A stretch of DNA of 64,000 nucleotides, from positions 112,406,001-112,470,000 of the forward strand of contig OZ024741.1 in assembly GCA_964016885.1 (NCBI GenBank), read 5' to 3'. The stretch comes from Eledone cirrhosa. Lineage: Eukaryota. The translations under genes and the position numbers were made by a program. Position 1 is the stretch's first letter. Each line of letters starts with the position of its first letter. Positions 15,287 to 58,999 of this stretch are shown here, in pieces. The notes below the pieces were generated by a model, which ran no database searches, was not told the DNA's origin, and was given only the letters and a program-made list of their open reading frames with translations.

Positions 15287-15291
<5 letters not shown>

Positions 15292-15972
15292 AATGAATAT
15301 ATGAGGGATGAACATCTATACAATTATAGAAGTATTCGGATTGCAAATGACCAAGTTAGCTAGGTTGAAAGAATACTAATTTAACATAATATGGTTTGCA
15401 AGTCTCGATTTAAAATAATAAATCAATAAAAATAACAAACCTATATTGGCAATGGCCGTGATACCTGGACACATTTTAAATCTGTTTGACAAATTTCAAA
15501 TTTGTTTCGCAACGATTAAGTGAAAGTTACTGTGCTCTTCTGCAGGAATCCATGCGTTGAGCTAATTTTCTAGTCTCATAATACCGACTGCTATTTTTAG
15601 CGGCACGGATATGAGACGAGTTAGGCGCTGACACACGTGCGTTCAACAACACATGTTTCTCAGTCTTCTTAAGCATTTTGAAGTGGAAGGTACCAATTTC
15701 TGGATACCTGCAGAAGAGCACAGGAATAGTAACTTTCACTTAATCGTTGCGAAACAAATTTGAAATTTGTCAAACAGATTTAAAATCTGTCCAGGTATCA
15801 CGGCCATTGCCAATATAGGTTTGTTATTTTTATTGATTTATTATTTTAAATCGAGACTTGCAAACCATATTATGTTAAATTAGTATTCTTTCAACCTAGC
15901 TAACTTGGTCATTTGCAATCCGAACACTTCTATAATTGTATAGATGTTCATCCCTCATATATTCATTTGTAT
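15287..15972. repeat. ~265-bp inverted repeat with ~150-bp spacer (Penelope-type inverted terminal repeat)
   Basis: Arms 15287-15552 and 15701-15972, near-identical apart from a 6-nt indel; lies between (TA)n tracts. Confidence 0.9.
15703..15799 (+). ncRNA. Hammerhead-like motif, CAGAAGA variant, with long loops
   Basis: GATACCTG-CAGAAGA-GCA..TGC-GAAA-C..G-TC-CAGGTATC with a perfect 8-bp stem I; mirror copy on the minus strand at 15460-15550. Confidence 0.55.
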
Positions 15973-20573: not shown

Positions 20574-20855
20574 AAATGTTGGAAGAATTGTTACTCTCTG
20601 GGACTAGACAAGCCAGGGAACCCTCACTAGAGAGAGTTCTCAGATACTCCGTGTACAGAAGATCCCTTTAATCTGCCGTGAAAAAGACAACCTCTGGTGA
20701 CAAAATGGAATGCATTTATTTCCTCAGTCCCCAAAGAAATTCCAAGACAACATAGAATAAAGAGGATCTTCTGTACACAGAGTATCTGAGAACTGTCTCT
20801 AGTGAGGGTTCCCTGGCTTGTCTAGTCCAAGAGAGTAACAATTCTTCCAACATTT
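20574..20855. repeat. 92-bp inverted repeat with 98-bp spacer
   Basis: Arms 20574-20665 and 20764-20855, three mismatches by eye. Confidence 0.9.
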
Positions 20856-24240: not shown

Positions 24241-26838
24241 TCCATTCTTCATTAATTAATTTAGTGTTTTTCATTAAAAATAGGGCCATGAAAGGGTTAA
24301 AATCCACCAAGCTTAATTTTGCCTTTCATTCTTTTTGAAGTTGACAAATAAAGCACCAGCCTAGGGCATGCTTTGTGGTTTCTATTTTAGCCTTTTGCAT
24401 TCTGAGTTTGTCTTTGACATCACTGGTGCCAAGCAGTGATTACTTAGTAGTATAGAGGGGAAGATATGCATAGTTGACTGCTGGTCTTCCACAGAATGGG
24501 GTGACCATGGTTTCCTCTTAATGAGGAACTTTTCAGGTAAAAACCATACCCAGTCATGATTGTAGGGTACATCACGTCAGAAATTCTTTTGATCAGAAGA
24601 TTTCTCAATCTGAACTGACTTAGCATTAAAAAATAACATCATCAATCTGTATTTACCTTGCTCCTATAACCTCTTATCTGTGAAACATGCTGTCCTGAAA
24701 TCTGATCATATCACATTTTTCCACAGGATCTCAATTCTCTGCAGTGGGTACCCTCTAGAATAAGCACATGATAATGAATTATGCATTAGTTTCGATGATG
24801 AATATTCAGTTGTTTAATCAACTGTGCATCCAACCTCTGAGTTAATGTACAAGTGACTAAATATTCTACAGACAAATGTGCCCTTAATGCATTCCCAAGC
24901 CTAATTAGTGTGACAGAATGTATGACTGTTAGATCTTTGAATTAAAGTCCATCCAGTGAACTTCCACACAGTTTCCATCTATTCAATTTCACTCACAAAT
25001 CTTGAATCAAACTAAGCCCAAGATGCCTGACAGTGGGATCAAACTTCTTAAACACTCAGCCATGTTTGTGCCTAGTACATACCTCATTTTCAGAAAGTCA
25101 CTTATCTTTTATTTGTCCCAAATGTTCTTATAAAGATTGAGTTGGTCATAATTGTGCTTATTTCCATCATTTCTCCTTATATACTTTTATATAGAGTCTA
25201 TTATACATTTATATACACTTTATCCAGTTTAGAATAGTCACAGTATATACCTATGTGTTATGAGATATGGTTAATAGTTTTGTTGCCAGGAAGGGCATCT
25301 GGCTGTAAAACATTACCTCAAAGATAAAACCTATATCATGGAGTCCATAAGACTAACCACCATCTTTAGTGAGGGAAATGTGTTGTGACCTGATTTCAAC
25401 ACTAGTAGTAGTTACTTCATTTCATGTCTCACTAAAATCTCAGGGTAACTTGAGCCATGAAGGTTACAAGTTTTGAAAGGATTGCAAATGCTATGTTTTC
25501 AGAAGAAGCCTTTCAAAATCTTAGTAGGTCAGGCGGCTATGTTGTCTTTTTCACTGGTATATTGATCTTAGTAATTTTAATCGATATATATTGATCTGAT
25601 TATTTTTGTTAGTGGTAGCACCAATTACATTATTGATTGCTTCAGTTTGCCTATATCTTGAGAATGGTTTCCATTTCCAACATGCTATCTATGAAACTTG
25701 GTGCTAAGTGTAAGTTTTTACAATCCCCGTTAGGTTTAAGGAACCTTTTACATTATATTATATTACAAAGGTATCGATCTTACTTGTACACCAATGTGTT
25801 TTTATGCTTTTTAATACCGGCAGTGATTATGTTGTTCACAATGGTCATAATTCTGTCCATGTTATTGTTTTTGATGATAAAAATTATCAGAGTCAGTATC
25901 ATTGCACAATGTAATATTAAATGTGGCGATAAAGACCAGCCCCCTTCAATAAATAAATGCAATGAACCGATTAATCTCTCAAAATGTCCAATTATCATCA
26001 TACCAATTAAATTGTCACCTTCACAATCAGCATTACTACTTTTGTAATCTAAATATTTATTGCAGCAATTAAGATTGGGTACCTTAACAATCAGTTTTAT
26101 CTCATTAATAGCCAATGTTATTGATTGAAAACAATCATCATGTCTTCCTAACAATTGCCTTTATCCTTTCAACTAGACTATTATCATTTCAGAAATCAAT
26201 AGTATCACTTGAGCTATCAATTCAAACGTAAAAATTACCACTGTTATATGAACAAATTCTGTTACTGCCTTAGCAATCAATATGGTCAGCATTATAGATT
26301 TATCAATCAACATCATCAAATTAATAGTGTCTAATATTCCCTTAGTACACAGAATTATTTTATTACTATTAAATATTACCAGGTTACCAATGTAAATTCT
26401 CAGTTAGAAATCACTAGAAACATCACCCAAAAATCACCGTTATTGTGATCAAAAGCTAGAAAAGTTGTTAATATTAGTTGCTTTAACATTTACACCACCA
26501 TATTTCTAATGAAACATGTTGCCTATGATTTTCAAATAAATAAAAAAATAACCAAGAATCTGAAGGGATTTAGTAGTGTACATAACTTTCTCACTATGAA
26601 GCTGGTGTTTGAAACACATCTTAACAAATGTTCTAACATAAAATTATAATGGACCATTAAAGTAAATCACTTTAAACAAACAGTTTTGCAATGTAGAACC
26701 ATATGGGCTTTCAGGCATTTTGGTGTCAAGAGAGGTAATGTGGAAAAAATTCCATTAGAATTGGTAGTATCACTGTAATATAGTCAAAGTGAACAACTAA
26801 CCACTGTGCCAAAAGTAGAGACAATTATCAAATACTTT

Positions 26839-27025
26839 GGATTGACAAAATCGGTAGAGCGTCAGGCACCATGCTTTGCAGCATAGAGTTATGGACCCTT
26901 ATGTTCAGAGTTCAAATTCTGCTCAGGTTAGCTTTGCCTTTCATCCCTAAGGGGGTTGATAAAATAAAGCACCAGTAATGCACTGGGATAATTGCTGGCC
27001 TAGTGCCAAAAGTAGAAACAATTAT
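26839..27025 (+). mobile_element. SINE family A
   Basis: Matches the family; imperfect flanking duplication AATTATyArATACTTT. Confidence 0.8.
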
Positions 27026-27199
27026 TAGATACTTTGGTTTTCCAAGTATGATTATCATTTGAGAGGTGTAGCAATATAATTCTGCGCTAAAAAATGATCT
27101 AACTCTTCAAGGCATGGAGAAGTGAGCATGAAACTAATGATAATGTATCATCATCATTTAATGTTTGCCTTATCTGCTAGGTCATCACAGACTGGTGGG

Positions 27200-41880: not shown

Positions 41881-42554
41881 TTAACCCTTACTATGCTTTA
41901 CTGTAGCTTATATTTTAACCTTTGTCATTAGAAAATTGTTTCTTAGTTTATTCTATGTCAATAAGTTCCCATCATCTATCGTGATAAGTGTTTCTTTTGT
42001 TGATTTTTATATTGTCATATATCTTTTCTTAACAATTTTTCAAATTCTATATGCAAATTAAGTCGTATCTTACTGCCATGGTAATCCACAAAACAATATT
42101 TTAAACTGTGTTGTTGTGTGAGACACACTTATGTATATCAGAAGAAACTGATCTAATTGATTATGCCAATTAATACTACAAGCAACTGATTTCAAATACT
42201 TAAACATTTTGTTTCATTTTTCAACTTCACCATTTAATTGTGTGGCCAAAGGGATGTTGTTGAATGTTTTAAATTAGATTACTTTTAGCTTAGATATTGA
42301 ATAAATTTCTGTGATGCAAATTGTGTGCAATTATCAGTTTTAATGTTTTTCTGGAATGTTTAAAACAGACCATATATGTAAAAATAATGTTGCTACTTGT
42401 AGAAATTCGATGACAAATTCTAACAAAACCATTTACTGATGTAATAAGCTACTACATTTAACAGTTTTGATACTAAAACTACCTCAACCTACCCTTTGTT
42501 TTATGGTTCAATAACTGCTTATCACAAAATGTTTATATTTATCTAAAACCCTTT

Positions 42555-42736
42555 GGATTGGCAGTATCAGTAGAGAGTCGGACGCCATGCTTTCCAGCAT
42601 AGTTACGTCCCTTTACGGTCTGAGTTCAAATCCCGCCGAGGTTAACTTTGCCTTTCATCCTTACGGGGTCGATAAAATAAAGTACCAGTAATGTACTGGG
42701 TAATTGCTGGCCTTGTGCCAAAAGTAGAAACAATTA
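42555..42736 (+). mobile_element. SINE family A, young copy
   Basis: Nearly identical to 58744-58929. Confidence 0.9.
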
Positions 42737-44394
42737 TGATTTTATGTAAAAACCTTTGTTATATTCAAAACACCAAGTTAATAATGAGATAGTGTTTTTA
42801 TTAGAAATATGATAATTAATAAGTTAAGGTAATATCTAGAATTCCAGAAAATTTGTAATTGTCTGTATTTGCAATAATTAAATTAGAGGAGAGTTCCAAA
42901 GAAATAATGGGAATAGAGCCAGTGAAGAATTGAAAAGAAATGGAATGAGATGGTTGAGTCATGTGTTGAGAAAGGAACTGATTGAGAGAAAAGAGAGAAA
43001 GAAAATAATGTGGATGTAGAAAATAATGGGTAAGACCAAAATAGTCATGGCTAAAGATGAGGTTGGTAAGAGGGGATGTAGTGGATAGAGAAAAACTGAG
43101 AAGCCTGTTGTGGGGCCTACAAGGCTAACTTCTACTTTAGTAGGGAAAATGGCTTTAAAACTCTTATTGTTGAAAATTTCTAGAAGAGTTTGTTGAGTAT
43201 CATTTCCATGAAGAGTAAAGAATTGAACATTGCAGATTTTGGCTTTTCTTCTGAGAATGAAAAAAGAGAGAAAGTATCTTTCTTTGGTTACAACCAAAGT
43301 GATACACACCCTTGAACATTCTCACTTTCAGGAAAAGAGTAAGAACATGAAATTCTAGATATTTCATACTCCACGGTATTTGAAGTTACTGAACACTTCT
43401 GTAAACACTTTTACATTTCCCCAACGTTCTCTTGTTTACTCAGATCCCTTTTTAAGCTATGTATTATGGATGATTATGACTTCATGTGTTTATGATACAT
43501 TTTACACATTAGTTTTAGTTCTTGATCCTATGTTAGGTCACTAAACCTTGTTATTGTAACATTGTTTTTGTTCTTATGATTCCCTATTGACCTATGTGAC
43601 CAAGACTTAGTTATTTACTTCTAAACATCATAAGAATGACAAGTTTACTCCCATGCTATCTCAGAATTGATGATCAAATCACAATCCTTTTATAGAGTGT
43701 TAGACTTTCACATTTGCTCTAATCTTTTATAAATATTGCTTCATTAATCAATTTCTGTTCATTCTCATGAACAAAGAAATTTCTAACACTTGGATATCAA
43801 TTATGCTAAACCCTTTTGAGACCAAACTGCCTGAAACTGACCCTAGTTATATGGTAGAAAGATATTTATTTTTAAATGTTTGTATGTATCTAAAAAAAAA
43901 GAACTCCATTCTAATTCTATGTAAGAAACTTTAAGCTATACTCCAAATACCAGCTTGTTTATTAAAAAAATGTTATATTACTAAATCTCTGCAAGTTCTT
44001 AATTATTTACAAAATAATTGGAAAATGATAATCATTGTTGTTCTTTTTGATTGCTAATTTTGATTGCTCAGCAAAAAGGTCTGCTCTACACTCTTGTATC
44101 ATATGTGCTCTTTATCGTATGCAACAGTTATTGTTGTTTAGCTAGCCCTATTGAGCAGATTTATGATCAAAGACCATCTGGTATTTTTATATGTACTTTT
44201 GGACATTATCAAATGTGCCCTGTTATTTTTTTTCTTTTTATAAATGGAAGGATGTGATTTGAAGGAAGTTAGTTGTCATTTCCTGCAGCTCAAGTTGGAA
44301 AAATTCTTTGTTCTAGAAGTGTGTCTATTTCTAACATCAAATTGTGATTTAGTTTTATTTAATGTTAAGCCCTAATTTTATGAGTTATCAACAT

Positions 44395-46870: not shown

Positions 46871-47208
46871 ATTATTTTAAAGTATAATAGGCACAGCATA
46901 ATTGAGTGGTTAAATGTTTGCTTGGCAATCATAAGTTCTGAGTTCAATTCCACTGCCTGGTCTAACCTTGCTTTGACCCAAGTCTTTTGAGTGAAATTAG
47001 GTAGAAAGTGGATGAACTATGCCAGTACAAACCTTGTTACATCTTGTGTCATGCTGATTTGGCTTGGGGTTCATGTTAAGGGTACACATGCTTGTGGAGT
47101 ACTCGATATTCATGTCATGGATATTGAGATGATTGAACAGCTGAAAGGTGAAAAGGTGAGCATTGAAACCAACAAAGGGTCCATCATCATCATCGTCATA
47201 ATAATAAT

Positions 47209-47404
47209 TGTTTCTACTTTTGGCACAAGGCCAGCAATTATCCCAGTGTATTACTGGTACTTTATTTTATCAACCCCGTAAGGATGAAAGGCAAAGTTAA
47301 CCTCAGCGGGATTTGAACTCAGACCATAAAGGGCCGTAACTCTTTGCTACAAAGCATGGTGTCCGACCCTCTACCGATACTGCCAATCCACCCCCCCTAC
47401 CCAA
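47209..47404 (-). mobile_element. SINE family A with ~15-bp TSD
   Basis: CGTCATrATAATAAT at 47194-47208 and 47405-47419. Confidence 0.9.
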
Positions 47405-47838: not shown

Positions 47839-48426
47839 ACAAATATTCAATACATTTACATTTAGTATGTTGAACATTCTTTATTGGACACTGTTTTCCT
47901 CGTATTGTTAGTTCAATTAGAATGAAAACATTTGAATTTGCAACACATGGTAAAATATTTGATGTGTTTATTCCTTCTGGTATCAAATTACTTTTAATGA
48001 AAGATTTGAAGTGATTCACTAAAATTATTATTTCATTATCAAGATGGTAGATGTAAAATATCAAAAGGTTATTTATACCTAAGTATGCTAGATTTTCATT
48101 TGAATAGGAACTTTTTAAAGTCTTGTTTTGTCTCATAAAATCAAAATGGTCTTGGGTGGGTTTGTATCAATAGGGTCAAATAACTTTTCTTCTCTAAAGA
48201 TGAGGTTAATAATGTAAAAAATTATACTCTTATTAACAGCAATTAATTGTAGACATTTAGGCATTACATATTCATGATTGTAAATAGATACAGCAGTTGA
48301 ACTTGATCTTTACACTTTACAACATGTTTACTTGTAAATTAATGGAATGTATGAAGTTTCCTTTATAAAATGATAGTAAAAAGTATAAATATTGAATGAA
48401 ACTTTATTATTAGTGAAACAAATAAT

Positions 48427-48606
48427 TGTTTCTACTTTAGGCACAAGGCCAGCAAATTACCCAGTGCATTACTGGTACTTTATTTTATCGACCCCGTAAG
48501 GATGAAAGGCAAAGTCAACCTCGGCGGGATTTGAACTCAGATCATAAAGGGACGTAACTATGCTGGAAAGCATGGCGTCCGACCCTCTACCGATACTGCC
48601 AATCCA
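48427..48606 (-). mobile_element. SINE family A with 15-bp TSD
   Basis: AGTGAAACAAATAAT at 48412-48426 and 48607-48621. Confidence 0.9.
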
Positions 48607-51600
48607 AGTGAAACAAATAATGATATTCAATATTACAATACCTGACACAACACATCTGTATTGAGAAGAAAAATTTAATGGGTATGCACATAAGCATGGC
48701 CAAGTTGTTAAGAAGTTTGTTTTGCAATCACGTTGTCCTAAGTTCGATCTGAGTGACATATTGGATAAGTGTGTTTACTATAGTCTCAGGTCAACTGAAG
48801 CCTTGTAAGTGAAACTGGATAAATGGAAACAGTCTGGAAGCCTGTTGAATGGGTTGTACCTGGCTTGGGAGTCACATTAGGATACACGTCTGTGAAATTC
48901 TCAGCTACTTACATGTAAATACACAAGTTGGAGGACATCAAGTTTATAAAAAACTAAATACTCAATTTCCAAACCAAGAGGAGACTCCATTTTACAGGTA
49001 TATATATCCAAATATTTGAAGCCAGTTATAAAGTTATATTCTCTGAGATTTAAAAAAAACATAAAAAATATCCTAATCTTTTTGTATACAGTTACAAACA
49101 ATAATTATACACATATATCAGATTTCTATTTTGACATATATCAGTGTAGCAGTAATTATTTAGGGCCTTTGTAGATCTTGTGAGACAGAAAATCTACACC
49201 TGGGGAGTTCCTCTCCAAAGCACAGACCTGGGAATGGAGACTGTTTTATGGAAGACCAGCAGTCACCTACATATAGAATTTTCCCCTTTCCATGTCTCCA
49301 ATTTTGTCTAAGAAAAAGAGAAAGGCTGGTACAGCTTGACACCAGTGACATTGCAGATGACCTCAGAATGCAAATGACCAAATGCGATATCAAAAGGCAT
49401 CACTTTTTACACTCTAACAATCCACCAATCTATCATCTTAGACAAGTACTTAATTTATGGACCCTGAATGATGAAAGGCAAAGTTGACCTTCACATGATT
49501 TGAACTAAGAGCATAAAGAGCTGGATAAATGCAGTAAAGTATCCAATCTGATGTTCTAACATGTCTGATGATGATGATAGCATTTGTATTAGACATCTTA
49601 TATCTACCTAGCTTGACAATCAAGTAGTTGCTCCATATAGAATTGCTACTTCGCTGAATTGAGAGATCACAGCTCTGATACTGCAGACATGTGGTCAGAA
49701 TGTCTAAGGAAAGAATCACTTGACAGATTTTATAGGTGAGACCTAAGGGTAGACCCTTAGCAAGATGGTTGGATAACATCCATGAGCTCAGTTGGCTTCA
49801 TTGGGGATTCAGCCAGATCAATTGAAGACAGTTGTATCTAACAGGACCTGCAAGAAGGCGTGCTTGAAGCTCTGCCCTTATGACCCACCCACAAATAAGT
49901 AGGCAAAGAAGAAGGCACCTTGTGAAATATTATATCACCCAAGATCATCTGAGGCATTAGATGTGCATTATAAAAAGGAAAAAAGCTGATTCTCAGATCA
50001 GACTTAGGAAACTGTTTCTATTGGTCTTTCTTTTGATGATATCTGCCATTGACAACTCCTGACAGAAGTCCCATCACTTTTCTGGTGTCAGAAGGAAGGA
50101 TTTGAATGCAGAATGCATAAAACCAGAACAGATACCACAAAGTATTCCATCCAACTTTTTAACAATTTCATCAATTCGCTATCCATGGACTGGTGATTTA
50201 TTTATCGACATAAATTGAATGAAAGGAAATTTTGGCATTGGCATGATGTGAACCCAGAATGTAGAGAATCAAAACAAGAACATTAAATGTAAAACATTTT
50301 ATCTAACATTCTAGTCATTCACAAGTAACCATTCCTAGATCTCATAAGTAACTCTTTTCTCTGCAGAGAATACTGCTATGATCCATTGTTAGGAAATCCC
50401 ACTATAGCGTGATGGTTTCAATTGTTAACCCAGTAGAAATGTGATGCAGCTATATTGATTGGTAATCTAATAGTGACTTGGGTTTGCCAATTGGATTCAG
50501 TTTGAGGGTTTCTCTTCAAATACTGTCTATTTACATTCTATTTTCTCATAATTCATATCAAGAAAGAGAATAGCAATCCAATGCCTTATGTGAATGCTGT
50601 GCACTGTATTGATGTAAAGAAATTCTAAGTTTTTGGTATATAGTTCTAGATTCTATATATTTTTATGTATATATTTATTACTGTTTTATTGATCATATAT
50701 AGATTATTCATTGAAATTTCTATTACTAAAAGCAATTCATACACACACTACAGATGCCCTATATAAGCCTTATGAGTAAAATTTGATAGACAGAAACTAT
50801 GTAGAACTCATCACACACACACACACTCACACTCATCATCATCATCATCATCACCACCACATTATGTCTGCTGTTCCATGTTTGCATGGTTTGGTTGGGG
50901 CTTTCTCAGTTCAGCATCTCTCCACTTGCGTTCCTCTGTCTTCCTTGGTCTACATCTACTGAAGATTCCCTCCATCCATGTGCATCACCTGTCCATACCA
51001 TGACAGTCTCTTGCACACTATATTTGATTCCTCTTATTTCTAGTTTCTCTCTCAGTTCATCCATTCTTTGTTGTTCTCATACATTAACATTGCTCATCCA
51101 CTGAAGCATGCTTAACTGATTTCTGTTAAGCCTTCATATATCCTCTGCCCATGTTTCACTACCATGCAGCATAGCACTTCACACACAGATGTCATACAGC
51201 TCACCTTTGGTTTGTTGGGAGAAACCTTTTGTTGTTAGCAGAAGTAGTAGTTCCTTTAACCTCTTCCATCATGTCCTTATTATAGCTGCTATTCGCCCAC
51301 TGCTAATTAGATCACCTAGGTAGCAGAAGTTATCAATCATTTCTATGGATCCTTCCTGGGATTGGAAAAGGTTTATATTATTAGTACTCTTACTATCAAA
51401 TGACCCTGAACATCTACTACTTACAAAGTCTTCCTTTCCTATTAGTCTGCCTGATATCCCACTACACCTCTTGTGTATTCAAGATTTGCATTGTGTACAT
51501 CATATAGAGTTTAAGCTTATTCATTTTCTACATATCCATCAAGGGTACGTACCTGATGATATCAGAGCTCTATCTTCTTTCCTACTTCTTAACACTTTTT

Positions 51601-53060
51601 CTGCTAAGTTTATTCTCAGACATTTTGATTCTAAATTCTATTTCCACGGCCAGAATTTATTATCTAGCTCTTCCACAGATTAAGCTATGAGGACTAAATC
51701 ATTGGCATACAGAATTTCCCATGGATATCTAATCTTAAACTATTCTGTTGTGATCTGGAGGACTATGATAAACAGAAGTGGGTAAATAACTGAACCCTGA
51801 TGTATTCCTACATATACATTCAATTTCTCACTTTACTGACATCTCTGTTTATGGCTTGTAATGCTCTTATAGCGGGATACTGGGTTGTATGAATGTAACA
51901 AGGAGACATGGTTTGTGTGTATAATATTTAATCAACAATTTAACAGTATAGTTGACATGTCAATGAATAAACGAAAGAATGAAGCAAAGTTAGTAGTTAC
52001 CGTTTTGATTGCCAGGCAAACGCGGCTGGCAGAAGACGCCTGGCGAAAGCCAGGCGCCGGAAGGGCAAATGAGAGGGTGAGAACTTAAAGTTGTTAGTTT
52101 TATAGGGTTCTGACCGGAAGTTACAGAAAGGGTTCTACTTCCTGTCTAGATGGTGTTAATCTATTGGGGTTGTGTGTGTCACAACCAGGGAGACAACTCC
52201 TGCTACATAACCTCCCGCCAGAATTTTAGAATATAAAAATCGAATGAAATATGTATGCAGCAGGTTGGCGAGAATGTTGTAACAGGCATGAAAATTACGA
52301 CAAAAAAAATAATGTTTGCAAAAATCAATGATAGATATCAAGGTAGCCAACCGCTTTTGGCCAGAGAACGACTGGACATCTATCTATTCATCACCCAAAG
52401 ATACAATGTAATAAAGTAAGAGAAGAGCTCAAAGTTCAAATGTACAAAATATAGTTCACAGGTGTGCAATCACATGACAGCAGGAAAGAAAGTGTGTTCC
52501 AGAGAATGAATGCAGGTGGTTTCTGTTCTGTGGTATATCGTGAAATTTCCAACCTCCGAATGGATTTTCTCACAGGAAGAGTGCTGCAAAAATAAATTCT
52601 CTGGCTTGTTCTGCTGGTTTTGGTTGTTGGTGAAGCTGTGTTGCTGTTGATGTTGTCTCGCGGAGTGAGCGTATTCGGTGTTTAAATTCACAGTAAAAAA
52701 AAAAAAAATTTTTTCAGAAAAAATGAGTTGCGCAAAGTGTTAGAAATAACAGCCGAAGTTGATGGTCGATATTGAGAATGCGTTGACCTGGAAGGGTCAA
52801 GAGGCCAGCGGTCATGTGATTGCACACCTGTGAACTATATTTTGTACATTTGAACTTTGAGCTCTTCTCTTACTTTATTACATTGTATCTTTGGGTGATG
52901 GATAGATAGATGTCCAGTCGTTCTCTGGCCAAGAGCGGTTGGCTACCTTGATATCTATCATTGATTTTTGCAAACATTCTTTTGTCGTAATTTTCATGCC
53001 TGTTACAACATTCTCGCCAAATTGCTACATATTTCATTCGATTTTTATATTCTAAAATTC

Positions 53061-53073
53061 TGGCGGGAGGTTA
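53061..53073 (+). other. Polypurine tract upstream of LTR
   Basis: TGGCGGGAGGTTA|TGTAGC; mirror copy at 52208-52220. Confidence 0.7.
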
Positions 53074-53154
53074 TGTAGCAGTTGCCTCCCTTGTTGTGAC
53101 TCACAACCCCAATAGATTAACAACATCTAGACGGGAAGTAGAACCCTTTCTGTA

Positions 53155-53266
53155 ACTTCCGGTCAGAACCCTATAAAACTAACAACTTTAAGTTCTCACT
53201 CTCTCATTTGCCCTTCCGGCGCCTGGCCTTCGCCAGGCGTCTTCTGCCAGCCGCGCTTGCCTGGCA
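53155..53266 (+). promoter_or_regulatory. LTR promoter: ETS-like site, TATA box, Inr-like site, R-region hairpins
   Basis: ACTTCCGG 53155-53162, TATAAAA 53172-53178, TCATTT 53204-53209, hairpin 53218-53241; conserved in all three LTRs. Confidence 0.5.
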
Positions 53267-53411
53267 ATCAAAACGGTAACTACTAACTTTGCTTCATTCT
53301 TTCGTTTATTCATTGACATGTCAACTATACTGTTAAATTGTTGATTAAACATTATACACACAAACCATGTCTCCTTGTTACATTCATACACCGCTAGTAA
53401 GCTCGCTATAT

Positions 53412-53443
53412 TGCTGACCCTGACGTGATACGAACACGCAGCC
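53412..53443 (+). other. tRNA-Trp-like primer binding site, extended
   Basis: TGCTGACCCTGACGTGATACGAACACGCAGCC versus the recalled tRNA-Trp complement TGGTGACCCCGACGTGATTTGAACACGCAACC; mirror at 54183-54214. Confidence 0.7.
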
Positions 53444-55727
53444 GTTCATTGTTATAAGTGGTCACCCCGAAAAAAGAAAAAATAGCAGAATCTGGTGTTG
53501 TGTGAGTAACATTACGAATACACAGCAAATTTATTGACAAACTATGAAAATACTCAGTCAAAGAAACGTACACAAGCACATGTGAAACTTTCGTGCAGAC
53601 ACTCTTTTTCCCTCACGCATCCACTAACTGTCGCAGTTTGCTGTATATATATATATGTTTCTCCAAGAAACGAACACACCACGCACATGTGAAATTCGCG
53701 TTCAGACAGACTTTTTCTCTCACGCATCAACTAACTGTCGCATTTCACGATATATATATATGTTTCTCGTTTCTTACAACGAACACTTTCAAAACAAACA
53801 AAAAAAGAAATTTGATATTTTTTTTGTTTTGTTTTGAAAGTGTTCGTTGTAAGAAACGAGAAACATATATATATATCGTGAAATGCGACAGTTAGTTGAT
53901 GCGTGAGAGAAAAAGTCTGTCTGAACGCGAATTTCACATGTGCGTGGTGTGTTCGTTTCTTGGAGAAACATATATATATATACAGCAAACTGCGACAGTT
54001 AGTGGTTGCGTGAGGGAAAAAGAGTGTCTGCACGAAAGTTTCACATGTGCGTGTGTACGTTTCTTTGACTGAGTATTTTCATAGTTTGTCAATAAATTTG
54101 CTGTGTATTCGTAATGTTACTCACACAACACCAGATTCTGCTATTTTTTCTTTTTTCGGGGTGACCACTTATAACAATGAACGGCTGCGTGTTCGTATCA
54201 CGTCAGGGTCAGCAATATAGCGAGCTTACTAGCGGTGTATGAATGTAACAAGGAGACATGGTTTGTGTGTATAATGTTTAATCAACAATTTAACAGTATA
54301 GTTGACATGTCAATGAATAAACGAAAGAATGAAGCAAAGTTAGTAGTTACCGTTTTGATTGCCAGGCAAACGCGGCTGGCAGAAGACGCCTGGCGAAGGC
54401 CAGGCGCCGGAAGGGCAAATGAGAGGGTGAGAACTTAAAGTTGTTAGTTTTATAGGGTTCTGACCGGAAGTTACAGAAAGGGTTCTACTTCCTGTCTAGA
54501 TGGTGTTAATCTATTGGGGTTGTGTGTGTGACAACCAGGGAGACAACTCCTGCTACACTCTCTTTCCTTAAAGGACACCAAATAACAAATCAAGGTATTC
54601 TGTCAAAGGCTTTCCTTAGATCAACAAAAGCTAGACACAGAGGCTTAATCATAGCTAAGAACTTCTCTTGTAGTTATCTTACTAAAAAGAATGTATATAT
54701 ATATGCCTTTATGACTATATTTATGCTTACTAATGTCCTATAATTTAACAGTTCTACAAAAGGGGATCAATAAATAGATATCAAACTTGAAACAAATACG
54801 AACTGGATTCAATAGGATGAACAAAGTCCCTTCAGAGTGGTGCCTCAGCATGGCTCCAGTCATAAAATGCAACACATGTTCATAATAATGATGAATGTTA
54901 CTATAAGATGTACAGTCTCAAAAAGCCATAACTGAGCTGAGCTTTGGCTATTGTGGTGCAGAAAGGATGATTGATATATAACTAATTGGATAGGATATTA
55001 ATCATTCACAAGCATGTGAAGGCATGTGGCTAAGTGGTTAGAGTGTTGGACATAAAATGTAGGCTTCAATCCTTGACTAGATGGTGTTTTGTCCTGGAGC
55101 AAGATGCTTCACTTCCTATTCTTCTAGTCCACTCAGCTGAACAAAATATTAGCACCAGCTGTAGCTTGAGGGTAGTCCCTATAATAGATCACCATCCAGT
55201 CCAGAGGGAATTTTTTTCATGATATTACTAAAAGACCCAAGAAACTTTTTATAAGATGTAACCTCATCGAACGCCAGCTAAATCTTGAATGCCAGGTATG
55301 AGCCATGCTCCCCTAAGTTGCATGGTTGTGCAGTTACTATATCGGTGCCAGGCATGTTAAAATATTCCATGTTTGTAGCTCTGAATCTAAAATATTTTTG
55401 CTCAAAGCATCAAACATGATGCTCAGTGTTTGGAAAAAATTGAGAACATCGCGTGTGAGCTGTAACAACAATAATATTCATTAGTAACATTTCTAGGTGT
55501 AGTAGGTACCTCTTTTCTCTGCAGCAAAACAACAACAACAACAACAAAAATCAAAAACAAATATTGTATTGTGTCCCACATAGGGGTTGTAATGAAAAAA
55601 ACTTGCAGAGGAAATGAATCATAATATGAATCATGAGAAGACAGCGCAATAATTTATGTAGTCAGCCATTTTGCCTCTACTTGTATACATACATGCATAC
55701 ATACTAAAACCACACATCACACTTTCG

Positions 55728-58743: not shown

Positions 58744-58929
58744 AAGGTGGAGGATTGGCAGTATCGGGAGAGAGTCGGACGCCATGCTTTCCAGCATAGT
58801 TACGGCCCTTTACGGTCTGAGTTCAAATCCCGCCGAGGTTAACTTTGCCTTTCAGCCTTACGGGGTCGATAAAATAAAGTACCAGTAATGTACTGGGTAA
58901 TTGCTGGCCTTGTGCCAAAAGTAGAAAAA
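58744..58929 (+). mobile_element. SINE family A with 15-bp TSD
   Basis: ATTATTAGTTGCTAC at 58729-58743 and 58930-58944. Confidence 0.92.
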
Positions 58930-58999
58930 ATTATTAGTTGCTACTAATCCCTATGGAGAATTAAGTGATAAGAGATCTCCATTCAGCATGGTTACACAC

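Follow-up and report, generated by a model that had tools for sequence, protein, structure and literature searches.

A three-LTR retrotransposon insertion with an inverted middle LTR in Eledone cirrhosa: a likely product of reversal during reverse transcription

How does an LTR retrotransposon come to have three LTRs, the middle one inverted, within a single TSD? The window (the whole stretch of Eledone cirrhosa DNA that we analysed, 64,000 nucleotides) contains such an insertion. Self-BLAST and repeat search show that it is 2.7 kb long, with the blocks in the order and at the coordinates given by the original prediction (A-B-C-B'-A'-D-D'-A), and CTCT is present on each side, as that prediction stated (Table 1). 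The prediction read the element on the plus strand. Its block positions stand, but the element itself lies on the minus strand, with the 5' LTR (TGTAGC..GCTATA, followed by the PBS) at 54216-54557, and it reads 5'LTR-PBS-D / D'-PBS'-LTR'-PPT'-B' / C-B-PPT-3'LTR inside the CTCT duplication. Gag and pol had been reported as absent, and we found no Pfam family in any of the element's six frames.

Table 1. Features of the insertion and its surroundings (positions within the window).
Feature	Position	Strand	Remarks
Interrupted old, broken LINE	50971..51863	-	resumes at 54562
TSD, left copy (CTCT, 4 bp)	51864..51867	.	family TSD is 4 bp in 28/35 parsed copies, of 60 sampled
3' LTR (A1)	51868..52207	-	subfamily-a U3; U5 tip type x
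B, 3' internal part, subfamily a	52208..52478	-	PPT adjoins 3' LTR; 99.3% to L031, 95.6% to subfamily-b copies
C, ordinary internal segment	52479..52810	-	spacer of 610-bp inverted repeat
B', inverted copy of B from subfamily b	52811..53073	+	PPT at about 53062-53073; 99.6% to subfamily-b copies, 95.2% to B
Inverted middle LTR (A')	53074..53410	+	subfamily-b U3; U5 tip type y
PBS and D, inner arm	53411..53806	+	D holds two 107-bp repeats
Hairpin loop	53807..53817	+	between A-run and T-run; same sense as middle block
D and PBS, outer arm	53818..54215	-	rare variants in common with inner arm
5' LTR (A3)	54216..54557	-	U3 like A1, 3' part like A'
TSD, right copy (CTCT, 4 bp)	54558..54561	.	spanned by X1 contig with 0 differences

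The element matches its own reverse complement between 53080 and 54551 (97.7% over 1476), with arms of 713 nt and 3 nt between them, which bears out the claim of a hairpin with arms of about 740 bp and nearly no loop. An inverted repeat of about 610 bp had also been described, and it is there (51868-52478 versus 52811-53410, 94.8% over 613), but its 332-bp spacer and the origin of its arms from two different subfamilies had been missed. The outer LTRs form a direct pair (97.4% over 342 by self-BLAST and repeat search) with 3 substitutions outside the variable U5 tip. Each arm of D has one private substitution. X, which is about 430-470 bp of the ordinary element, is absent, and the loop between the A-run and the T-run is also found in ordinary copies, at the D/X border. 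At the joint between B' and C (52810/52811) there is no exact microhomology; 4 of 6 bases are alike beyond the joint. A simple inversion within a tandem dimer predicts two equal loops; the observed ones are 11 and 332 bp, and we rejected this possibility.

The inner-arm PBS (53412-53429) is of the tRNA-Trp type with two mismatches, and complementarity continues to about 53445. In both arms, the PBS is a variant of the family type, without the tRNA-exact signature of 18 nt that is discussed below.

The interrupted LINE, which we follow the original prediction in taking to be an RTE, is 72-76% identical to two other copies in the window and has no Pfam match in frames read with X at stops. It had been said to resume collinearly after the insertion. 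The order is indeed maintained, but continuity is not exact: compared to the second copy in the window, about 21 bp are missing at the site. These missing bases leave some room, in theory, for part of the CTCT match to be due to chance.

The parent family is a high-copy non-autonomous LTR retrotransposon. Ordinary copies have two direct LTRs, with a PBS after the 5' LTR and a PPT before the 3' LTR; they are 1.7-2.1 kb long, non-coding, and primed by tRNA-Trp, with 4-bp TSDs. The longest stop-free frame in one of them (L038) is 94 aa, and no curated-level Pfam match was found in 12 frames from L038 and the window element (one weak match to DUF6663 was below the cut-off). The PBS of the family matches genomic tRNA-Trp, genes for which are found in the same genome, and the 18 bases of its tRNA-exact form match tRNA-Trp plus CCA. 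(A first tRNA motif search gave the PBSs of other families in four loci that we read.) The two LTRs of one element often have discordant U5 tips (23 of 35 parsed copies), and these tips differ about three times more often than the divergence of the LTR body predicts. We also considered and rejected two other classes. Retrozymes have a hammerhead ribozyme in the LTR; Rfam gave no matches. Helenus, Ajax, and Cassandra (TRIMs derived from small RNAs) carry tRNA- or 5S-derived sequence within their LTRs; ARAGORN found no genes in the window and Rfam had no matches at E <= 1 on L038.

The original prediction left a choice between a one-off rearrangement and a non-autonomous family that transposes in this form. 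Searched by exact patterns, which diverged or unassembled copies would escape, the whole genome has the B'/C junction only once, in the window, and the D/D' fold-back at two loci, against 169 ordinary junctions. So the same junctions do not recur together at other TSDs: the remaining structure around the two fold-backs differs. Furthermore, of 60 sampled loci with the ordinary junction, none contains an internal block in inverted orientation. According to the relevant part of PMC4079214, Cassandra elements with several direct LTRs are believed to be copied in that form, and the outer ends of the window element are correct. But its pair of junctions is unique, the second junctions of those related insertions that were resolved (see below) differ, the PBS is mismatched at the end that pairs with CCA, and the transcript is predicted to contain a 600-bp hairpin, with a fold of -1137 kcal/mol over 1231 nt. 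Within the assembly, the exact-pattern searches largely refute a mobile form, and we give this idea next to no chance of being correct. The rearrangement by fold-back or template switching is the part of the prediction that gained support.

The window copy is a mosaic of two subfamilies, a and b, with crossovers in the R part of the LTR. A1 combines U3a with U5x, A' combines U3b with U5y, and A3 combines U3a with U5y. A1 and A3 have in common a rare allele at LTR position 33; A' and A3 have in common a rare allele at position 282, a genome-unique U5 tip, a PBS variant, and D159. Both switches between a and b lie between positions 132 and 282, downstream of a TATA-like box. Tip y has two matches in the genome, both in the window (the middle LTR and the 5' LTR), and tip x has five; we found no parent locus with U5y in the genome.

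The inverted PPT-LTR-PBS block had suggested the capture of an LTR circle. More specifically, the source might have been a one-LTR circle or a tandem array, from which a B-LTR-D piece was captured, inverted, in place of X, with the arms homogenised later by gene conversion. The closest matches to the 690-bp B'-LTR'-PBS block are in fact units of a tandem array (G000:C2:47.39 Mb, 96-97%). However, D in this array lacks one of the 107-bp repeats, and its U5 tip differs from that of the window. Also, the inner D of the window element has the a-like type of the outer arm, which makes the block a recombinant in its own right, and conversion must be added to account for the shared rare alleles. Capture is not needed: the block is a two-subfamily chimera with its switch in R, which one more jump of the strong-stop type would be expected to produce. 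We consider it extremely unlikely.

Might the inversion instead be a fold-back artefact of the library or the assembly? Near-perfect palindromes in high-copy repeats are the kind of sequence that assemblers mishandle, and this is a near-perfect palindrome of 740 bp in a repeat with hundreds of copies. But a derived substitution of its own sets each arm apart; the other subfamily supplied B' and the U3 of A', which is impossible from the fold-back of one molecule; and the palindrome ends at the end of an LTR, with a single LINE running on through both flanks. An X1 contig spans the right junction without differences (from one sample, possibly the assembly's own source). At the left junction, contigs from X1 and X2 of the same sample reach across by 29 letters, against a threshold of 31. 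No contig from the three runs bridges B'/C, and the depth bins allow for no further one, but rare joins of low depth among thousand-fold repeats are lost from contigs, which makes this uninformative either way. We find an artefact very unlikely. The anatomy of the insertion is real in the assembly, with the internal junctions resting on assembled sequence.

This type of accident recurs, which the original prediction missed. Nine other TSD-bounded insertions with inverted pieces are present in the same genome, or ten with the window, each with other junctions. Five of the nine have three LTRs with the middle one inverted (L253, L246, L247, L250, and L255). L253 has the architecture of the window element (LTR-PBS18 / D'-LTR'-B' / C-B-LTR), with TGTC as its TSD and outer LTRs that are 99.8% identical. 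L248 and L256 are more complex. L254, with a head-to-head LTR, and L051, with LTR-D-D' ending in ACA inside a GAGT duplication, have aberrant ends within clean TSDs; L051 is an independent event at the same A/T hairpin as in the window element. The computed TSD was 4 bp at all nine loci tested, including the window, and the TSD of L248 was read by eye. (L251 and L252, with a hotspot junction and a third LTR type, are outside the ten, as their ends are not resolved; L257 has an inverted piece of just 10 bases.)

In eight of the nine sister insertions, a junction falls exactly at base 18 of the tRNA-copied PBS, and in seven, this end joins its best predicted partner site. In a scan of 1.9 kb of one copy, with RNA parameters as a proxy, the 18-nt end is predicted to pair best with the landing site, at -16.3 kcal/mol versus -13.6 for the next. 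More broadly, 12 of 61 junctions behind a tRNA-exact PBS leave family sequence right after base 18. Such junctions are a signature of reverse transcription. Together with the aberrant ends within clean TSDs in L051 and L254, they show that reversal preceded integration at the sister loci. The window copy lacks the 18-nt signature, so the timing of its own event is judged from the mosaic and from the sister insertions. The window element is likely a unique product of a recurrent reversal during reverse transcription.

We propose that the copy was rearranged during reverse transcription with two RNAs of the family and was then inserted by integrase in one piece, with a 4-bp duplication. We consider this quite probable. 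Two RNAs would have been together in a particle. RNA1, of subfamily a, would have supplied U3 for the two outer LTRs as well as U5y, the PBS, D, and B; RNA2, of subfamily b, would have supplied U3 for the middle LTR as well as U5x and B'. Minus-strand DNA begun from a primer on RNA2 would have moved to R at the 3' end of RNA1, been extended along RNA1 as far as the 5' end, and then made a second jump, to R at the 3' end of RNA2, giving a B-PPT-LTR-PBS-D block. Two strand reversals would have followed, at the B/C border and at the family's A-run/T-run hairpin, with the loss of X; the data do not fix their order or direction. Finally, a transfer within R to plus-strand strong-stop DNA would have provided a proper LTR end, and integrase could then have inserted the product as a single piece. 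The path has about six steps, and other orders fit equally. First jumps between two RNAs that mix R/U5 with U3 have been described, in the part of PMC6894440 that concerns us, as have three-LTR complexes within TSDs that arise by template switching (PMC1950507, in part). The rearranged product is likely a dead end because its PBS is damaged and its transcript would be a predicted 600-bp hairpin.

The alternative that we take most seriously starts from an ordinary copy. A later chromosomal replication fork would have turned round at the A/T hairpin, copied its way back over D and the 5' LTR, changed templates in R to an ectopic copy of subfamily b, and returned at C. This is template switching of the inverted-triplication type. 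Discordant U5 tips are so common in the family that A3 need not stem from the event, an inter-strand switch would likewise invert the loop, and b-type donors exist, including the tandem array with its contiguous B-LTR-D block. Yet this account needs both an ectopic switch and an exact return, and the sister loci show reversal before integration. Furthermore, the arms and the LTRs look to be of one age: their divergences are indistinguishable (2-3 versus 1-2 substitutions, p 0.28-0.64), in a test with little power given only 4 substitutions. We judge it unlikely.

More speculatively, the family might use a non-canonical route: priming would take place on one RNA, copying would extend through the PBS and U5 of the other, and the second transfer would go by way of R. 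Combined with the A/T hairpin and with a partner site for the strong-stop end that is built into the sense strand, this route would turn about 1 in 100 insertions into long-hairpin loci that act as self-seeded silencers, similar to Mu killer. We hold this full scenario to be doubtful. If true, the non-canonical route would explain why most copies have a PBS with mismatches to tRNA-Trp and why 5' and 3' U5 tips often differ.

The likely helper of this non-coding family is a CsRn1-like Gypsy element, judging from sequence features. In L247 and L248, the C-B-LTR part of the family comes after a Gypsy pol, and the genome has copies of this pol with open frames of 1051 aa, which are putative sources of trans-mobilisation. 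Upstream of the pol match, 16 of 19 loci have the Gag motif CX2HX9CX3C, and none has CCHC. As characterised in the part of PMC2582038 that we used, the CsRn1 clade of Ty3/Gypsy has this Gag motif and the RT-RH-IN order, which the likely helper matches, along with a tRNA-Trp PBS and a 4-bp TSD, which we see in the non-coding family and the chimeric loci. The window element differs from this clade in encoding nothing, and the helper is placed there tentatively, by its features. (A 5.7-kb array at G000:C14, which we considered as a helper, is a tandem of host DNA and an ordinary copy.)

The single locus in the window is a dead-end accident, and it is the series that is of more use. Together, the ten integrated inversion products, in most of which one junction falls on a defined base, form a fossil record of failed plus-strand transfer in a natural animal retrotransposon, and the series also records switches between different LTR types. 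The discordance of U5 tips between paired LTRs causes LTR-pair dating and LTR finders to misread this family. And any transcription of the hairpin loci would make them natural triggers by which small RNAs silence the family.

In the open-access literature, we found no description of an inverted internal LTR or of inverted three-LTR strand-transfer products, which is not proof of their absence. Cassandra TRIMs, as far as the relevant parts of PMC4079214 and PMC7215508 describe them, are similar in being non-coding, in having solo LTRs, tandem arrays, and copies with 3-5 LTRs inside TSDs, and in having a PBS and a PPT at each internal LTR. But those parts describe tandem units, with no inverted internal LTR, and Cassandra is 565-860 bp long with 5S-derived LTRs, while our family is 1.7-2.1 kb long without such sequence. 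Mu killer of maize is also a transposon copy whose rearrangement includes an inverted duplication, with a long hairpin RNA predicted (PMC3440606, in part); its origin is a DNA transposon, and it acts in trans as a silencer, whereas the hairpin in the window is a predicted fold only. The template-switch complexes of grasses (Sabot and Schulman 2007, PMC1950507, in part) also have three LTRs in one TSD, very similar outer LTRs, and a PPT and a PBS beside the internal LTR, and the explanation given for them was a jump from one co-packaged RNA to another. Those complexes have a direct internal LTR and keep two full cores, whereas the window element has an inverted middle block, a palindrome of D, the loss of X, and sites of reversal that recur in its family. 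The window element works like a Sabot and Schulman complex without being one as defined, since it lacks two direct complete cores; its three-LTR form is an inverted variant of these known template-switch complexes.

The three-LTR structure at positions 51868-54557 of the window is real; it is unique as a locus and recurrent as a class. The original prediction drew it as a double palindrome, and the LTR pair, the inverted repeat and the palindrome were all recovered where it had placed them, as was CTCT at both ends. Its block order on the + strand holds, but the element itself reads on the minus strand (LTR TGTAGC..GCTATA, with the PBS 3' of the 5' LTR, the 3' LTR being preceded by a purine tract). 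The order is then 5'LTR-PBS-D / D'-PBS'-LTR'-PPT'-B' / C-B-PPT-3'LTR, where D, X, C and B are internal segments of the ordinary element and primes mark inverted copies. This copy is 2,690 bp long, lies within a CTCT duplication, and is missing X (430-470 bp in ordinary copies). The palindrome is centred on an A-run/GAAATTTGATA/T-run hairpin that is native to the LTR family (-5 to -6 kcal/mol as DNA), and the loop reads in the same sense as the middle block. Six frames of the element, translated through stop codons, matched no Pfam family, in agreement with the predicted absence of gag and pol. The host LINE, which had been called an RTE, does continue collinearly past the insertion, but with a gap: it resumes about 21 bp short relative to a second copy in the window.

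Repeats in the window, by window position
Feature	Position	Identity	Remark
Direct LTR pair	51868-52207 / 54216-54557	97.4%	
Inverted repeat	51868-52478 / 52811-53410	94.8%	
Palindrome	53080-54551	97.7%	
Inverted repeat, 272-bp arms	15287-15972	97%	likely MITE-like
Two shorter, more diverged palindromes	2522-2747, 20574-20855		likely MITE-like
Dispersed repeat, ~190 bp	729-917, 26837-27027, 42553-42737, 47202-47390, 48421-48607, 58752-58936		SINE-like, at least 6 copies

In contigs from one sample (possibly the assembly's own), the right insertion junction is bridged and the left is crossed by 29 letters, without differences. These contigs neither confirm nor refute the internal junctions (B'/C and D/D'). 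We consider it very unlikely that the structure is an artefact.

Exact patterns were searched across the whole assembly. The B'/C junction matched once, the D/D' fold-back matched at 2 loci versus 169 for the ordinary D/X junction (a fold-back frequency of about 2 in 171), and the U5 tip that the middle LTR shares with the 5' LTR matched twice, both times within the window. An LTR search of the 3.0-Gb genome gave 2,138 first-look candidates (40 of them scored), a lower-bound style figure and not a copy number. In a separate search with the junction region, no locus among the 40 best-scored hits except the window spans it. The original prediction had offered either a non-autonomous family that transposes in the three-LTR form or a one-off rearrangement. 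The counts speak against the mobile form, which we regard as extremely improbable, and as the junctions do not recur as a pair they favor the one-off side. That reading fits the junctions of this locus but not the class, which recurs in sister loci with target-site duplications (TSDs).

Ordinary copies are LTR-D-X-C-B-LTR (1.7-2.1 kb), and solo LTRs are also present. Sixty loci were drawn from those matching the ordinary D/X junction: 59 read on a single strand, one has a separate LTR fragment close by, and an inverted internal block is absent from all of them. Of the 35 parsable loci, 28 have a 4-bp TSD. The same genome has a tandem array in which units of the element share LTRs (G000:C2:47389412-47401420; period ~1,670 bp, at least 8 LTRs). 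Capture of a circle or array piece is very unlikely as the origin of the window copy. Another array (G000:C14:21370177-21464594, ~5.7-kb period) repeats an ordinary copy plus host DNA.

At two loci, the family's C-B-LTR comes after a Gypsy pol (RT, RNase H, integrase). Some Gypsy pol copies have 1051-aa open frames, and a CX2HX9CX3C motif lies upstream at 16 of 19 loci. The family's PBS is of the tRNA-Trp type, and tRNA-Trp(CCA) genes with a complementary 3' end are present, with clusters at G000:C4:353.39-353.49 Mb (>30 motif matches) and 277.4 Mb. Judging from sequence, a CsRn1-like Gypsy is the likely helper of this non-coding family: the pol and motif, with the family's PBS and TSD, agree with the hallmarks of the CsRn1 clade (tRNA-Trp PBS, 4-bp TSD and CX2HX9CX3C motif) listed in the available text of PMC2582038. 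We also noticed a second LTR type (~428 bp) that recombines with the family and has the C-B region in common (L246, L247, L248, L253, L211, L084); L247 and L248 are inverted chimeras containing pol sequence. At L031 (4208-6281), an a-type copy has an entire copy of another subfamily inserted at its LTR/PBS end, in the opposite orientation, and an older copy (L065, 437-1331) has an internal inversion of C-B plus the first 22 LTR bases.

Plus-strand strong-stop DNA ends at PBS base 18. A search for the tRNA-exact PBS gave 76 matches, and 61 junctions were read (excluding one duplicate locus, the 13-match C14 array and L048). Of these, 49 continue ordinarily and 12 depart from the family sequence directly after base 18, a set enriched by its own search and hence no unbiased rate. 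The most frequent landing (14 matches, 10 places) is just behind the tRNA-complementary stretch; when one copy was scanned over 1.9 kb, this landing site was predicted to pair best with the 18-base end. L253, mapped to its ends, is 5'LTR-PBS18 / D'-LTR'-B' / C-B-3'LTR, with architecture identical to the window copy but different breakpoints and outer LTR type. L246, L247, L250 and L255 also have three LTRs with the middle one inverted (partially in L255), L248 and L256 are more complex, and L254 is head-to-head. The hairpin at which the window copy folds back is also the turning point in L051 (G000:C1:243.8 Mb), which stops ~200 bp on at ACA and lies inside a GAGT duplication. A 4-bp TSD was computed in all nine loci tested, including the window, and read by eye in L248. 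The class thus recurs with TSDs and the 18-base signature. L251 and L252 (ends not mapped) and L257 (only a 10-base inverted piece) were left out of the count; in L251 (3817-4400) and L252 (3735-3758), the hotspot junction is attached to a third LTR type. Direct jumps after base 18 into X, B, LTR or unrelated DNA (L171, L180, L187, L190/L228, L199, L220, L217) give miniature and direct three-LTR copies.

The window copy is a mosaic of two subfamilies, a and b. B matches an a-type copy at 99.3% identity and B' matches b-type copies at 99.6%; the identity of B to B' is 95.2%. With x and y denoting U5 tip types, the 3' LTR is U3a+U5x, the middle LTR U3b+U5y and the 5' LTR U3a+U5y. At LTR position 33 the two outer LTRs carry the same rare allele; the palindrome arms agree in rare alleles at LTR 282, within the PBS and at D159. 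In D, the two arms also carry one substitution each of their own. Both subfamily switches fall between LTR positions 132 and 282. This interval is probably R, judging from a TATA-like box near 102 and ATTAAA near 277.

We propose that the window copy originated in reverse transcription, which we consider probable. A particle would have held an a-type RNA1 (U5y, PBS, D, B, U3a) and a b-type RNA2 (U5x, B', U3b). After a first jump from RNA2 to RNA1, RNA1 would be copied through its own PBS and U5. Synthesis would then return to RNA2 in a second jump, giving the B-PPT-LTR-PBS-D block. Strand reversals at B/C and at the hairpin, with loss of X, and a final transfer in R would then leave an end fit for integration. 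This path of about six steps uses each RNA once and explains every allele and the loop orientation. A plus-strand-first path like that of L253 fits if the arms were homogenised afterwards. Against reverse transcription, the window PBS is not tRNA-exact, the B'/C joint lacks exact microhomology, and no parent locus with U5y was found in the assembly. A later chromosomal switch, after insertion, is unlikely. Arm and outer-LTR divergence are indistinguishable (p 0.28-0.64, with only 4 substitutions).

Across the family (L101-L160 and L031-L092), U5 is hypervariable in its final ~19 nt, with 25 forms among 35 copies, and the tips of paired LTRs differ in 23 of these copies versus ~7 expected from 1.2% body divergence. 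In 25 of 35 copies the PBS has two mismatches to tRNA-Trp, and resetting to the primer sequence is therefore not the rule; PBS-tRNA complementarity extends ~35 bases. These features may be a more rewarding lead than the window locus.

Our searches of open-access papers turned up no description of inverted internal LTRs within one TSD. The available accounts of Cassandra elements with several LTRs describe tandem units (PMC4079214, PMC7215508), and the Helenus and Ajax readings do not apply to our family (PMC10886601). A hairpin transcript is proposed for Mu killer in the accessible part of PMC3440606; the window copy is predicted to give a 600-bp hairpin transcript. The part available of a review (PMC6894440) covers intermolecular first jumps by which LTR parts are mixed. 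As far as the accessible text of Sabot and Schulman goes (PMC1950507), the grass template-switch complexes are explained by jumps between RNAs, which would give a block of the B-PPT-LTR-PBS-D type. The window copy departs from their definition, which has direct order and two full cores, but would work in the same way.
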